The notes under the pieces were generated by a model that ran no database searches, was not told the DNA's origin, and saw only the letters and a list, made by a program, of their open reading frames with translations. Shown piece after piece: positions 2,193-11,700 of a stretch of 64,000 bases of DNA (position 1 is its first letter; each line of letters begins with the position of its first letter). The position numbers and the translations under genes were made by a program. The DNA lies in the NCBI GenBank assembly GCA_010405405.1, contig MU004241.1:124001-188000 (forward strand). The letters run 5' to 3'. The stretch is from Microthyrium microscopicum (taxonomy: Eukaryota).

Positions 2193-2837
2193 CTATTTTT
2201 TGTCCAGCTCAAGGGTCATAACAACTCCGCCTCTGGATGTAAAGGCTTCAGGCAATTCACCTTCCGGGATCATATCTGAGTCTCCATTTGCTATCAATGC
2301 TTCAGCAAGCGTGCAGAGCCCAGCACTCTTGAAGCCCATAGACTCATACATTTTCAGTGGTGCAACGTTTTGTCGCTTTACCATGATTCGTACTCGCACT
2401 TTCTTAGGCTGTCCCTCTTGAACCTCCAGATAGTTAAAAGCTTCTTGACAAATTTTCTTGGCAATACCATGACCACGATGCTCGGGAAGCGTATACAACC
2501 CCAGCATCTGCCACTTTTCTTCCTCCTCGTCTGGTAAGGCAGGCGGCTGACCAGACTCCTCAGGTAGGTCATATATTGAGGTGGTTATGGGGCCGAGGAC
2601 GGTAACTTGAGCAACCCATTCTCCAGTTGATCTTGCAGCAACGACGAAGGTTTCTTTGCTGGGCTCGCTTAGACGGGCAATCCATGTATCGAGGGAGAAC
2701 CTGGATTCGGTTTCATATGTTGATGAGAAAGAGGTTGGAGATTGTTGCAGTGCGGCTAGTCGAAGATCTCGATACTTTGCTGCTTGGGTGGCTATGTTGG
2801 AGCCGTAGCGATCAATGTGGATATATTGGTATTCCAT
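2193..2837 (-). CDS. GNAT family N-acetyltransferase, ~214 aa
   Basis: Acetyl-CoA binding motif GLYTLPEHRGHGIAKK and N..A...YESMGF-like motif; fungal-type start YRDLRLAALQQSPTSFSSTYETE; ATG at 2837. Confidence 0.85.
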   Translation of the reverse strand: MEYQYIHIDRYGSNIATQAAKYRDLRLAALQQSPTSFSSTYETESRFSLDTWIARLSEPSKETFVVAARSTGEWVAQVTVLGPITTSIYDLPEESGQPPALPDEEEEKWQMLGLYTLPEHRGHGIAKKICQEAFNYLEVQEGQPKKVRVRIMVKRQNVAPLKMYESMGFKSAGLCTLAEALIANGDSDMIPEGELPEAFTSRGGVVMTLELDKK

Positions 2838-3321
2838 TGGTAATAATTTGACATCAGGGTATGACTTTGGGACTTGATGAAGATGTTTGAACAATGCAAT
2901 ATGCACTGAAAATGGAAATGCTCTTGCTTCAGTATGAGAGTAAGCTGCAGAAACATGGACATTGGAAGGCATTATTTTACAATGAGTCACAGGTCAATAT
3001 CGCAACGTTTTTGGTGGATACGATTACTGATCATGTAACAAACAGAACAAAAAAATGGCTGATAGAGAAATCTGAATAAAGATGGAAAGCCATTCCTCCC
3101 AAGAATAAGACTCCGCTTTGAGAAATTGAATAGCACGCCTCATTGGAACAATCTGATCCCAGTTTGTTTTGTTGGGAGTTTATTTGCAGATCTTGCAAAA
3201 GAACAGGAAAATGATTAATTGGCGCATTGGAGTTTGGAGGTTTGAGAAAGCAAGAAATAAAATAGTAAACAAATCACGGATATGTACGATTATGAGGCAA
3301 TAATTGTTCCAATCTTTTGGT

Positions 3322-3423: not shown

Positions 3424-3680
3424 TCCTTTTTTTGTACTCTTGGGCCATGAAAACAGAATCTCAGAACTATATTTTTGGATATATAGCTGGTATAACTTTT
3501 TTTCATCATTATGCAACTCGAGTGTATTTATGCATTGTTTGACGCTTTGACCAGGTGATTTGAGCCTCAAATTGTGCAAGTCATCTTTGATGCATCTCCA
3601 AGTTCCAACAAAACATCCCTCTCGGAACAATCGCCAGGGGGAAGAGTCATCGCAAAGCGGGAGTCAGCGCCGACTATTTC

Positions 3681-6487
3681 ATGAGGTGCTGCGCCTGGCA
3701 ATCAAAGCTCCCAAAGCTGGGCAGAATCTTGATACCACCACTTCCACTGCATCCCGCCAGAGTGTGCCTAAACTTCTATTCGCAACAAACCTTTCGGCCA
3801 GCACCGTCGCGCAGACTCGTCATGGCCTCTATCGTCCTTGATGAAGTCGAAAAGACTTTTCGCACATTACTCCTGGACGTGGTCAAATTTATCGAAGAAA
3901 CACCTAATATCGAGTCTTCCAATGTCTCGCTGCCCGAAAAGCTTGCCAAAGCACCACTCACTATTCGTTGGACAGGAGGATGGGTTCGCGACAAGTTGAT
4001 CCATGTACCAAGCAAAGATATTGATGTTGCCATCAACAAAATGACAGGATATCAATTTGCTATGTGCATCAAGAACTTCCTGGAGCTGCCGCATGTTTCT
4101 GAGAAATATGGCAAAAAGCCTCTGAAGCTTCATAAGATCGAGGCCAATCCTGACAAGTCCAAGCACCTAGAGACCACAACCATCCGACTTTTCGATCTCG
4201 ATATAGATTTTGTAAATCTGCGCAAAGAGACGTACACAGAGGAGTCACGAAATCCTCAAGTCGAATTTGGTACCCCTGAAGAAGACGCTCTAAGGCGTGA
4301 TGCCACTATCAACGCAATGTTTTACAACATCCACACCTCATCTGTCGAAGACTTTACCAACCGTGGGCTTGAAGATTTGAAAAACGGAATTATACGAACT
4401 CCGTTGGACCCTCGCACAACATTCTTAGACGACCCTCTCCGTGTATTGCGCTTGATCCGATTTGCGACACGTTATGGCTACGAAATCGACGAAGACTCAC
4501 GCAAATCTATGGCCAGCAAAGACATTAAGAAAGCCCTTATGGCCAAGATCACTCGCGAACGCGTCTGGACGGAGCTGGAAAAAATGTTGAGAGGGCCTGA
4601 TCCAAAAGCAGCTTTGAAATATGTCCATGATCTGGGACTTTATGAGGTGGTTTTTGTTGATCCTTCAAATCCGGATTTTTACCACCCCGATCTGGTAAAT
4701 TGGTCTACTGTCTACAGTCTAGTCGATGAAATCATTCACGAGACCTCCATTTCAACACAAACAATCAAGGCCATCGCCGTTCACGACAAAGAGAGCGAGT
4801 TTATTGCTTGGATGATTGCTTCGTTAGTGCCTTGGACAGATGCACCTGAGGCACCTCCTTTGAAATCTGGTCGCGCGGCTCCACCAATGATTGCTACAGT
4901 GGCCAAAGAAGGACTGAAGACCACAAGCAAGCTCTGGGACTTGTATACGCTAAGCGTGCAGCATATGGAAGCAATTCGAACTTTCAAGAGTAAGAGCAGC
5001 CTGGCGCGGGACTCCCTTGGTATGGCCATTCGGAAATGGGGACCAACTTGGACGCAACAAGTATTGTTTTCCATGGTTCATGAGGTTATGGAGGAGCCTG
5101 ACAAGAAGATGGGTAATACACGAGAGCACTTCATGAAGCTACCAAAGCGCTAACCTTTTCAGGGATCCTCAAAGCATACTCTGAATTTTTGAACAAATGC
5201 AAGGCAATGAACTTACTCGAAGCGTACTCATTCAAGCCGCTTCTTGATGGAAAACAGCTTGCTGCGGCCTTATCTACAAAACCAGGTGTTTGGATGAAAA
5301 CTGCATTGGACGTAGTCATGGCCTGGCAATTGCGTAATCCAGAGAACACAGACAAAGATGCTGTTCTAGAGCAAGTCCGGACTTGGAAAGAGACCTACCA
5401 ACCAGAACCAGAACCTCCAAAGAAGAAGCAAAAAAAGCAGGGTGAGCTGACTTCCGATCTAACTACCCATTTTCTTCGGCTCACTCTTCGTCCTCTTTTC
5501 TCGCAGACACCACGACCCCATGATCTCACTGAAGCCGGGCGACGAAACATAAACGCCAGTGTACTTCGAAAGGATATTTCAGGGGTGTTTGACGAAGACA
5601 TTCGACCGTGGAAAACAAAAGATTCTTGGGCCCTCGACTTATTATTGTGGGTATGCAAGAGCCTTGATCATGAGTGTGTTGAGCGTGAATGGGGCGTTTT
5701 AATCCCACCCGTTCTGACTGTTCTTGACGACACGGATGTTGAAATCAAAACTCGAGGCTGCCAACTTTTACAGAACTTGTTATTAAACACACCATCCGAT
5801 CTTCTCAAGCGAACAGGCCTGGTCCCCGTCTTTGAAGAATCCCTCCTCTCCTGCACCTCTTATTTACCTACACTCACTCCCGAAAAAGAGTCTATCACCA
5901 TCCTCAATGCAGCATTTCCTGCTCTCATTGCTTTAGCCGACGCTGCATATCCAATAAGCCCCGAACAGACACATTCCCCTCCCAAAGTCAAATTCCTTCT
6001 CAAAGTCCTTCGTCAGGCTTTCTTTGCCGGCTACAAACATGCCGGTGAAAACATTCGTGTTGCAGAGACATTACTTATAAACCTAGTACCGTTACTAAGA
6101 GCACTTGGTATTGACTCCGTGATCCACTTGAAGGACCTTGTTCCTATTCTGTCAGATCTTCTGGATGATCCCTTTGGACCTGCATCACCTGCCCTGATGA
6201 CTGCGGGATTGAAAGCTTCGGCAGAGCTGATCCAGGTGGCACGCCCTCGCATAGGCTACTATCGCGGCAGCATACTCAAAGGTCTTACCGGACTCTGGCT
6301 GAGGCTGGATGAAGATAAAGGGCTTGAGCAGTCTGAAACAGACTCTCTGCGAGAGCGATTGAGAGATGTGTTCGCGGCACTTGATGACGCCGTGAAGAGC
6401 GAGAATGAATGGAACAAGGACTGGGCCAAGGAACGGAAAAGTTTGACTGATGCAGATGAGCGCTTGAGCAAGCTTTTTGCTTCCTAG
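3681..6487 (+). CDS. CCA1: CCA tRNA nucleotidyltransferase fused in frame to a C-terminal Tti2-like domain; exons 3681-5112 and 5163-6487, ~918 aa
   Basis: Class II nucleotidyltransferase motifs GGWVRDKL, DIDVA, DFVNLRKETY, EDALRRDATINA, DDPLRVLRLIRFA. Intron 5113-5162 (GTAATA..GCTAAC..CAG) joins in frame to KPLLDGKQL. From ~5441 the sequence reads as fungal Tti2 (LRPLFS, PWK, LIPPVLTVLDD, TGLVPVFEE, YLPTLTPEKES). Confidence 0.88.
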
Positions 6488-6574
6488 CCTGGCAGTGTAG
6501 ATCTGTCTATCTGTGGTAATTACAAAATCTGGTGTGAAATCTGGTCTTGTGAGTGCATCCTTATGCTTCTGATA

Positions 6575-7627
6575 CTATTTCTCTGGTCCAAGCAAGCCTT
6601 TGACAATGATATTCTGCTGTGCTTCACCTGCCAGGAATCTTTGCACGTTCTCAGTTAGCATTCGGGTGAGATTGAGTCTTGTCAGTTCCGAGAACCATGC
6701 AACATGTGGGCTTGCCACGAAGTTCGCATCATCTGCCAAGTCCCTGAGAAGAGGAGTGTCGTTTTGATCCGATGGTTCCACGTCAAAGACGTCGGTCGCA
6801 TAGCCTGCGATCTGCTTCTCGTTCAAGGCCTTTGTCATAGCCGCCTCGTCCACAATTCCTCCCCGCGAAACATTAACCACCAACGCATTTCTCCGCATTG
6901 CCTGCAATTCTTCTGTCGATATCAAGTTCAACGTTTCAGTCGTCTTCGGACACACCACCACCAATGTCGTCGCGACCTTTAACAGCTTTCCAAAGCTCAC
7001 TCTCTTCGGATTCTTCAGATCCACGCTCTCAATCTCGTCACTCTCCCCTTCCACCACCACGCCCTTCCGCCCTGATACAATAACCTGCATTCCCAACGCC
7101 TTCATTAACTCCGCCACTCGCTTTCCAATCGCGCCATATCCCACAATCCCACAGACCTCCTCCCGTAATGTTATCGGCCAGACACCATCCGCATCCCTCA
7201 TATATCTCGTCAAACTCTTACTAGCTTTCCACTCGCCCGCCATCGTTCGATTATGCATTTGCGGCACACTTTTTCTTGCCGCAAAGTATAGCGCGATCAC
7301 ATGTTCTGCTACAGCATCCGTATTTGCGCCTGGTGTATTACTAACTCCAATGCCACGTTCCTCACATGCCTTCAAGTCGATATTATCAGTGCCGACGCCT
7401 AGCGTGGCGATGAAGCGCAGTTTAGGTGTGATTGAGGGTGATAGAATCTCAGCGGTGAAGTTTATAGTTGGCATGCCAATTATGATCGTGGCGTCGAGGA
7501 TGCGTTCGCGTAAGTCGGCGGCGGAGGTGGTCGGGTACGAGGTTTGCGTTGCTGTATGTGGAGCGGGGATAGGGAAGGTCGGGATTGGCATATGGATGCC
7601 CTCGAGGACGACGATGTGGTGATGCAT
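6575..7627 (-). CDS. D-isomer-specific 2-hydroxyacid dehydrogenase (glycerate dehydrogenase/hydroxypyruvate reductase-like)
   Basis: GVGTDNID, VAEH, Rossmann GIVGYGAIG, catalytic NVSRGGIVDE, DVFDVEP, SPHVAW; intronless 350 aa ORF. Confidence 0.92.
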   Translation of the reverse strand: MHHHIVVLEGIHMPIPTFPIPAPHTATQTSYPTTSAADLRERILDATIIIGMPTINFTAEILSPSITPKLRFIATLGVGTDNIDLKACEERGIGVSNTPGANTDAVAEHVIALYFAARKSVPQMHNRTMAGEWKASKSLTRYMRDADGVWPITLREEVCGIVGYGAIGKRVAELMKALGMQVIVSGRKGVVVEGESDEIESVDLKNPKRVSFGKLLKVATTLVVVCPKTTETLNLISTEELQAMRRNALVVNVSRGGIVDEAAMTKALNEKQIAGYATDVFDVEPSDQNDTPLLRDLADDANFVASPHVAWFSELTRLNLTRMLTENVQRFLAGEAQQNIIVKGLLGPEK

Positions 7628-10979: not shown

Positions 10980-11700
10980 TCATGTTATTTTTTGCTTATA
11001 TCAGTTACTTAGGTAGATATCTACTTGGGTAAATTAGGTGTTTAATACTAAAGACAGGTAAAGCAGGTCGCCACATGGCAAATTAAACGGCATACTCGTA
11101 CTAACACCTATTGCTAGAGTACTATTCGCTACCTGTATAGAGAGTTTGCTCTTTACTATTTGATTTTACACATTATAGAAATTACCTATAAGGTAGAAGA
11201 GTAGGTACTTAATTAGAGCTTTAGCTAATAATAAATAATAATATAGTTTAGGGAAATAGTCTATTAACCTTACTATTTCGCTCGTAGGCTCCCTCTATGC
11301 CGTAAAACACTAGAGTAGGATTTTATATATAATAGTAACGATAAATAAGTGTTTATTCTTTCTAATAGGTATTTAGGTATAACTATATTTATTAACTTTA
11401 AACCTGATTTAAGCCTATCTAGTAGACTTATTTATTCCTTTATCCTATTTTTAAATAGTAGAATATTAAGGAAGTATTTATATAATAAACTCGTTTAAGG
11501 TATATAGCTTTAGCTACCTAGTACCTAGATAAAGATTTTGCGTGTTAATACGTGTATGGACTTAGAGGATACTATACCATTACTATACTTCTAAAGAGGG
11601 AACTTTTTAATAGGATAGGGTACTAAAATGTTATCAATTTGTACTAATGTATCCTGTGTCTCTATTGTAGTGCCTAGCCCTCTCAAAAATGTCACTAATA
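10980..11700. repeat. Small AT-rich, RIP-like degenerate island of unknown origin
   Basis: Abrupt rise in TpA and loss of CpA/TpG, no ORFs; boundaries approximate. Confidence 0.6.

Follow-up and report, generated by a model that had tools for sequence, protein, structure and literature searches.

A fused CCA1-Tti2 gene in Microthyrium microscopicum and a conserved, frame-shifting intron at its joint

The window analysed here, 64,000 nucleotides (nt) of the Microthyrium microscopicum genome (GenBank assembly GCA_010405405.1, contig MU004241.1, positions 124,001 to 188,000 of the forward strand), carries at 3681..6487 on its plus strand one gene in which the reading frame of the CCA-adding enzyme CCA1 continues into that of a truncated Tti2. 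At the boundary of the two halves lies a 65-nt intron within coding sequence (an exitron, 5442..5506), which is skipped in an RNA contig and whose splice signals are conserved in related DNAs. We consider it probable that this is one gene with two products, the boundary intron choosing between CCA1 and CCA1-Tti2. In yeasts, CCA1 and TTI2 are separate essential genes, and the Tel2-Tti1-Tti2 complex is a co-chaperone that matures PIKK-family kinases such as TOR, ATM/ATR, and Tra1.

The gene and its 65-nt boundary intron

The gene consists of two open reading frames (ORFs) in different frames, 3681..5153 and 5117..6487, which are brought into one frame by excision of a 50-nt intron, 5113..5162. 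An initial annotation, made from the sequence, had proposed that CCA1 and Tti2 share one frame with no stop after WQLRNP; it did not mention this intron, and its conclusion on the fusion is unaffected. The downstream ORF is indeed stop-free from the CCA1 tail (KPLLDG...WQLRNP) through PEPEPPKKKQKKQ into ∼350 more residues, and exon 2 scores 244.6 bits with the Tti2 family profile (PF10521; cut-off 25.2, E 1.8e-72), of whose 279 positions it covers 36-279. The same Pfam scan, which that annotation had suggested as a check, placed both CCA1 domains above their cut-offs as well: PolyA_pol (PF01743) at 94.6 bits against 23, in exon 1 at residues 97-239 of translated 3681-5111, and PolyA_pol_RNAbd (PF12627) at 37.4 bits against 22, also in exon 1. 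The joined product has 871 residues from the ATG at 3822 and 918 from the ATG at 3681, and a public 871-residue M. microscopicum protein (P0001) is 100% identical to the window in its Tti2 part. The taxonomy look-up places M. microscopicum among the Dothideomycetes. The parts of the gene are as follows, a slash marking a splice cut.

3681..3821, plus strand: optional N-terminal leader read from the first ATG; 47 residues, of basic character and free of acidic ones
3822..5112, plus strand: exon 1, body of the CCA-adding enzyme; opens at the second ATG (MASIVL...), where the public 871-residue model also begins
∼3969-4397, plus strand: PolyA_pol head (Pfam)
∼4476-4655, plus strand: PolyA_pol_RNAbd (Pfam)
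5113..5162, plus strand: intron 1, 50 nt, GTAATA...CTAAC...CAG (sequence; RNA contig joint 5111>5162, cut +1)
5163..5341, plus strand: CCA1 C-terminal tail (...KPLLDGKQL...PGVWMKTALDVVMAWQLRNP), by alignment; conserved in stand-alone CCA1 of other classes
5342..5440, plus strand: variable-length linker, last residues PEPEPPKKKQKKQ (alignment of fused proteins)
5441..6484, plus strand: truncated Tti2 module, all-helical solenoid (Pfam Tti2 match ∼5444-6184; structure model)
5442..5506, plus strand: 65-nt exitron, donor G/GTGAGC, acceptor CAG (RNA contig joint 5440>5506, cut +1, GT..AG)
5480..5484, plus strand: branch-point-like CTCAC, its A 24 nt before the acceptor; putative branch role, from the sequence
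5521..5523, plus strand: TGA stop for the spliced mRNA (frame shift after the 65-nt excision)
6485..6487, plus strand: stop codon of the fused frame (ORF reading)

The RNA evidence comes from one contig (4404 nt) of one sequencing run whose RNA label was guessed, and contigs of this kind drop minor variants and carry no information on transcript ends or levels. The contig covers the window from 3554 to 6900 (the end of the compared stretch) with zero letter differences and has two GT..AG joints, at which 5113..5162 and 5442..5506 are both skipped; because it lacks intron 1, it must derive from RNA. The exitron lies wholly within the open frame 5117..6487, opening inside the Gly codon that starts the Tti2 module (CAG G/GTGAGC...) and closing at ...TCGCAG/. 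Removing 65 nt, a number not divisible by three, changes the reading frame and leaves CCA1 alone: the spliced message reads ...KKKQKKQ-D-TTTP and then meets the stop at 5521-5523, five codons past the joint, giving by our arithmetic a product of 528 residues from the ATG at 3822 or 575 from that at 3681. The same bases also code for (G)ELTSDLTTHFLRLTLRPLFSQ, the helix with which the Tti2 module opens. This peptide is conserved in 14 of 14 aligned fused proteins and marks the point at which the Pfam Tti2 match begins. The segment 5442..5506 had at one stage been set aside as merely intron-like on account of its conserved peptide, a dismissal overturned by the contig, which skips exactly those 65 nt.

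In the reading that we favor, splicing of 5442..5506 would thus give CCA1 alone, retention of the 65 nt would give the 871- (or 918-) residue CCA1-Tti2 protein, and both mRNA forms would be made in the cell. The initial annotation had gone further and proposed a physical link between tRNA maturation and PIKK assembly. Its fused frame exists, but in the mRNA form represented by the RNA contig the 65-nt intron is removed and translation ends after CCA1, so that CCA1 is sometimes made without the Tti2 half.

Conservation of the splice signals

We compared the window with nine related DNAs (10 sequences, which include three groups of closer relatives). The donor hexamer GTGAGC was present in 10 of 10, and an acceptor AG was found 65 nt on in nine and 62 nt on in one, a distance that is always 2 mod 3. 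The shifted frame met a stop within 1-11 codons in all 10, although such an early stop is fairly often expected by chance and is weak evidence alone. CTYAC stood at the same place in every sequence, the A preceding the acceptor by 24 nt, or by 21 nt in L002, and the last 30 nt of the exitron were 67-83% pyrimidine against a background of 45-52%.

When the ten ORFs were aligned by codon, an invariant degenerate residue was seen in 75 columns, and the codon itself was invariant in only 2 of these 75, namely the donor GGT and GAG, whose overall use is 33% (GGT among Gly codons) and 49% (GAG among Glu codons). The proportion of differing synonymous sites (pS) over the Tti2 part was 0.55-0.81, near saturation even for the closest pairs, so that silent sites in the ten sequences carry practically independent information. 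Over the 22 exitron codons, the four closest pairs showed a pS of 0.06-0.22, with a corresponding nonsynonymous proportion (pN) of 0.00-0.08. Judged from these alignments, the exitron is under protein-coding constraint plus splice-signal constraint.

The donor could also be followed in proteins. The survey took in 197 proteins with a CCA1 tail and at least 150 further residues, of which an anchor pattern placed 153 and dropped 44. The residue before E-L was G, S, R, or C in 145 of the 153 anchored fused-type proteins (GEL 121; SEL 11, and 11 more read one residue off register; REL 1; CEL 1), and among the 36 dropped proteins that were viewed, 27 showed GEL or SEL by eye, including all Alternaria-type proteins. 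NGT codons specify G, S, R, and C and nothing else, so the pattern fits the requirement for a GT donor, the S, R, and C cases being known from protein only. Stand-alone Tti2 proteins are unconserved at the same three positions: GEL occurred in 2 of 63 proteins without the CCA1 tail, and both exceptions were fused-clade sequences missed by the tail pattern. The K/Q residue at the acceptor was rejected as splice evidence, K being also the commonest residue there in stand-alone Tti2 (ancestral). A second AG lies ∼78 nt past the donor (0 mod 3) in L001 and L003-L009, and its use would delete 26 residues in frame; in the window, no AG at ∼78 nt was found in the range scanned. The Elsinoe fawcettii model P0250 ('...VHG/VTAHGRK') looks like a choice of this 78-nt acceptor.

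Some gene models in other annotations end where the proposed switch would predict. In 13 of 13 CCA1-only models or ORFs from Dothideomycete-like sources, similarity to the nearest fused relative ceased within -3 to +1 residues of the tripeptide, and the proteins themselves terminated 0-20 residues past that point. Of the two Ascochyta lentis models, the 552-residue one matches the 905-residue one at 551 of its 552 positions and then ends; P0291 and the fused protein of Alternaria arbusti share 99% identity as far as the tripeptide point; and a Verruconis gallopava record named 'variant' ends in KKQKK-GQS. These endings, judged from proteins, are consistent with splicing at the same donor. The exact spliced C-termini predicted for the ten DNAs were searched for among stored proteins, and none was found there.

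Spread, domains, and origin of the fusion

The fusion is not peculiar to this assembly. All nine related metagenome loci that cross the joint are likewise open from WQLRNP into Tti2, a result that is independent of gene models; in two of the nine, PolyA_pol and Tti2 sit in a single unbroken ORF, 991 residues long in one and 998 in the other. Among long homologues of the Tti2 part (624-2000 residues), 18 of 19 hold PF01743 together with PF10521; the genera represented include Venturia, Tothia, Zopfia, Aaosphaeria, Aureobasidium, Polychaeton, and Lentithecium. A search with the CCA1-tail region gave 126 matches, and our statements rest on the best 120 of 126. Most of the matches listed are fused models from named Dothideomycetes, including Alternaria, Pyrenophora, Bipolaris, Zymoseptoria tritici, Cercospora, Pseudocercospora, and Dothistroma, and further fused models occur in Phyllosticta, Diplodia, Macrophomina, Hortaea, Cladosporium, and Elsinoe. 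A Chrysothrix model (Arthoniomycetes) is of the truncated fusion type too. Apparent stand-alone Tti2 matches of 390-490 residues came from a representative search (843 matches at E<=0.001, best 150 of 843); all 12 that were inspected begin with a CCA1 tail and are therefore ORF-caller fragments of the fused frame.

The architecture PF01743 plus PF10521 is thus already catalogued in many public Dothideomycete gene models. Most of the fused records carry the annotation 'poly A polymerase C-terminal region-like' or 'tRNA nucleotidyltransferase', and the Elsinoe fawcettii fused model is already named 'Tti2-like protein'. The Pseudocercospora fuligena fused protein P0328 bears the name 'Nucleotidyltransferase lcsQ', which looks like an ill-fitting transferred name, and P0324, a 955-residue fused protein of Dothideomycete type (GEL) filed in nr under Quercus suber, is probably a fungal sequence within a plant assembly. 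What is new is the splice intron at the joint; the domain combination itself is already in public protein records. A literature search outside subscription journals and supplements found no paper on a CCA1-Tti2 fusion or its splicing, and among the papers listed on exitrons in fungi none was, by title, on the CCA1-Tti2 locus.

On the CCA1 side, GGWVRD, DIDV, and EEDALRRD are invariant across the 14 aligned fused proteins (G52 G53 W54 R56 D57; D66 I67 D68; R158 R159 D160). GGxVRD, DxD, and RRD are what we take to be the catalytic blocks of CCA-adding enzymes. Exon 1 plus the tail is predicted to encode a complete CCA-adding enzyme capable of CCA addition. The RNA contig begins at 3554, so the ATG at 3681 is transcribed, and the 47-residue leader that starts there looks like a mitochondrial presequence; a targeting role would fit both its composition and yeast CCA1, which employs alternative in-frame starts for protein sorting. 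An 83-codon ORF in another frame (3590..3841, plus strand, ATG 3590) covers both CCA1 start codons, lies within the RNA contig, and could be an upstream ORF affecting the choice of CCA1 start. A basic run, PPKKKQKK (5417..5440), just before the donor resembles a nuclear localization signal and would stay in both products. KKQKK is present at the equivalent site in Venturia, Tothia, and some unnamed relatives, and is missing from several other aligned relatives, among them Aureobasidium, Aaosphaeria, and Polychaeton.

On the Tti2 side, the initial annotation had remarked that the N-terminal region of stand-alone homologs appeared to be lacking, and the domain analysis bears this out: the profile match begins at 36, and alignment with stand-alone Tti2 agrees. 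In fungi with a stand-alone Tti2, a protein of 520-590 residues, the profile match runs from 1/2 to 278/279 and is preceded by 140-160 residues; in the alignment the fused form has lost ∼190 N-terminal residues, in whose place stands only the linker, 15-62 residues among relatives (median 22). A hidden Markov model (HMM) of the stand-alone N region, run against the six-frame translation of the window, found none (best E 4.3). When residues 1-190 of stand-alone P0094 were searched against the ESM Atlas, the matches were confined to Tti2 clusters and unrelated HEAT proteins at 0.81-0.85, short of the 0.9 level taken as a lead. A diverged, separate N-half gene would be compatible with both results.

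Residues common to stand-alone Tti2 are kept along the whole module, and in the three closest locus pairs the ratio of nonsynonymous to synonymous rates (dN/dS) over the Tti2 part is 0.08-0.15; by these measures the module is under strong purifying selection, as are its stand-alone relatives. A profile of fused and stand-alone Tti2 matched the PDB sequences 9wjy_B (1e-12), 7ole_J (8.6e-12), and 7f4u_C (7.1e-11), the region common with human TTI2 being human residues 198-432. The structure model, built on a 67-sequence alignment, is an all-helical solenoid with a predicted local distance difference test score (pLDDT) of 90 and a predicted template modelling score (pTM) of 0.86; its first helix, residues 94-113, is the exitron-encoded one and is confident, and the linker scores a pLDDT of 55-68. 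Foldseek gave no match to the model at E<=0.001, and the best 50 rows of VIA-align held importin-like HEAT proteins (Z 12.6-19.1) and no TTI2 chain. Past the CCA1 tail, the window offers no in-frame Met until deep inside the Tti2 module, and the module is without a start codon of its own.

How the fusion arose may be read from other classes. CCA1 joined to a complete Tti2 (profile 1-279, own Met) is modelled in four Aspergillus species of one cluster, and the same full-length joining appears in models from Helicocarpus griseus and Teloschistes chrysophthalmus. For Teloschistes, one annotation has adjacent locus tags (CCA1 of 525 residues and Tti2 of 532) and another a single 1070-residue model. 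The 916-residue Pycnora praestabilis protein P0329 (Candelariomycetes) combines the CCA1 tail with Tti2 and lacks G-E-L, and is either a real fusion or a merged prediction. Because full-length CCA1 and TTI2 are neighbors in other classes, a tandem pair probably predates the truncated fusion, an order of events that we infer. The truncated fusion is common to Dothideomycetes and at least one Arthoniomycete, and the CCA1 stop, the spacer, and the N half of Tti2 were probably lost before these two classes split.

The fusion gene lies between the following two genes.

2193..2972, minus strand: GNAT acetyltransferase gene (ORF list)
6575..7627, minus strand: D-2-hydroxyacid dehydrogenase gene, convergent with the fusion gene

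The stop codons of the fusion gene and the dehydrogenase gene are 87 nt apart (6488..6574), and one RNA contig spans both; since a single contig runs across these convergent genes, their 3' ends probably overlap. Elsewhere in the window an AT-rich stretch (11001..11500) has a GC content of 0.29, against 0.39-0.59 in the remainder.

Competing explanations and implications

The reading that we favor would be completed by two further steps: the retained form would supply the Tti2 function to the Tel2-Tti1-Tti2 co-chaperone of PIKK kinases, and the efficiency of splicing would govern the balance between an abundant CCA1 and a scarce Tti2. We assign the Tti2 function to the retained form because the module is startless, is under strong purifying selection, and has its first helix encoded by the intron. 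Several observations weigh against this reading. The retained-intron mRNA and the fused protein are both things that we infer, the single contig being of the spliced form, and an assembled contig cannot prove a single transcript across both halves. Eight of the 153 anchored fused-type proteins lack the tripeptide, 44 of 197 were dropped for want of the anchor, and some gene models make other splice choices (Elsinoe P0250 and the NU459 t1/t2 transcripts). No second Microthyrium protein was found among the named entries of three protein searches (long homologues of the Tti2 part, the near-length search, and the CCA1-tail search), no genome-wide search having been made, and the claim that the fusion is the only source of Tti2 is unproven. 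Finally, the human work drawn on here reports that TTI2(1-193), fused to glutathione S-transferase, pulled down TTI1, and that TTI2(194-508), which was largely insoluble, did not (Pal et al. 2021, PMC8278493); the fungal module is the counterpart of this latter, non-binding half, so that membership in the complex is not assured. In the portion of a 2023 review consulted here, the Tti1 C-terminus is said to bind Tti2, without further detail (PMC10178989). CCA1 may act as a soluble N-terminal partner, fungi may make a different contact with Tti1, or the N half may be encoded elsewhere.

Other explanations were weighed. The full fusion might never be made, Tti2 instead coming from a shorter mRNA that starts inside CCA1 (Met at 5207, 5294, or 5318; ∼390-426 residues), with transcripts from the CCA1 promoter always spliced. 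There are in-frame Met codons in the tail (ORF 5207..6487), the spliced form is the path assembled in the RNA contig, and a strong housekeeping CCA1 promoter might otherwise overproduce Tti2. However, no evidence of an internal start was obtained, exitron retention would still be needed in some RNAs, and the frame kept over a variable linker in 10 of 10 DNAs is explained no better than by fusion; as for the tail Met codons, they belong to CCA1 and are conserved also where the two genes are separate, and so are uninformative either way. We regard this explanation as unlikely. Somewhat less likely still is that the Tti2 module has left the Tel2-Tti1-Tti2 complex to serve CCA1, for example as a HEAT platform for contacts with tRNA, the ribosome, or transport factors, the old function being dispensable or held by an undetected gene elsewhere. 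The loss of ∼190 N-terminal residues would suit such a change of role, given the part of the human protein reported to bind TTI1 (1-193, and not 194-508, in the experiments drawn on from PMC8278493), as would a fold search that yields only generic importin-like HEAT matches. It sits poorly with the strength of the Tti2 profile match (244.6 bits), with purifying selection and the stand-alone Tti2 residues kept throughout the module, and with a near-length protein search in which no other Tti2 from a named Dothideomycete was found.

Were the fusion instead constitutive, and the splicing noise or an artefact of contig assembly, the public models of many species that keep the 65 nt as coding would be explained directly. 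Such an account would leave to coincidence the exact GT..AG bounds in the contig, donor conservation at synonymous sites, the conserved branch and pyrimidine features, and the thirteen CCA1-only models that end at this point, and we consider it very improbable. We found nothing in favor of the final alternative, raised in the initial annotation as a way in which its proposal could fail, namely that the frame is open across the joint through a mistake in assembly or sequencing. Nine of nine independent related loci are open and the RNA contig is letter-identical over 3554..6900, and we take such an error to be excluded for practical purposes.

Returning to one gene with two products, a bolder version can be framed for Dothideomycetes and Arthoniomycetes: that the retained CCA1 isoform is the sole source of Tti2, that exitron splicing sets the dose of the Tel2-Tti1-Tti2 co-chaperone and thereby the levels of TOR, ATR/ATM-type kinases, and Tra1, and that the complex carries the CCA enzyme in place of the N half of Tti2. 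We hold this version to be possible, although doubtful as a whole. If true, tRNA maturation would be tied to the co-translational maturation of growth and checkpoint kinases.

Like yeast Cca1, a class II tRNA nucleotidyltransferase, the CCA1 half has a head, an RNA-binding domain, the GGWVRD/DIDV/RRD motifs, a C-terminal tail, and two in-frame starts, but the fusion gene has no genomic stop after the tail, the stop being created only by the 65-nt splicing. The Tti2 half resembles human TTI2 and other Tti2 proteins (PF10521; PDB 7OLE, 7F4U, 9WJY) in its profile matches and helical solenoid model, whereas, unlike stand-alone Tti2, it has neither the N-terminal ∼190 residues nor a start of its own, being joined to CCA1. 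The Aspergillus indologenus group, Helicocarpus griseus, and Teloschistes chrysophthalmus likewise have CCA1 followed by Tti2 on the same strand; in contrast, their Tti2 is complete with its own Met, they have no G-E-L donor motif, and their merged models are possibly unreal. Genes that yield two proteins through exitrons or retained introns are familiar from yeast PTC7, from SKI7/HBS1 in some yeasts, and from fungal peroxisomal isoforms, and exitrons are known in plants and animals too. Genes of the PTC7 and SKI7/HBS1 type similarly have an intron in coding sequence that is translated or removed to give two products, but at the CCA1-Tti2 locus the choice would join or separate two unrelated essential functions, and the intron supplies the stop of the first.

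The splice-switch reading also accounts for conflicting annotations of the locus, at which fused, CCA1-only, and in-frame-deleted models have all been deposited. Throughout a very large class of fungi, one including major crop pathogens and black yeasts, a single gene combines two functions that are essential and separate in yeasts. This raises the question of whether Tti2 can function without the half that binds Tti1 in human, and of whether there is a functional reason for linking a tRNA enzyme to a chaperone that matures TOR- and ATR-type kinases during translation. If the switch works as we propose, one intron would have three jobs, providing a stop codon, encoding a helix, and setting the ratio of two unrelated proteins.

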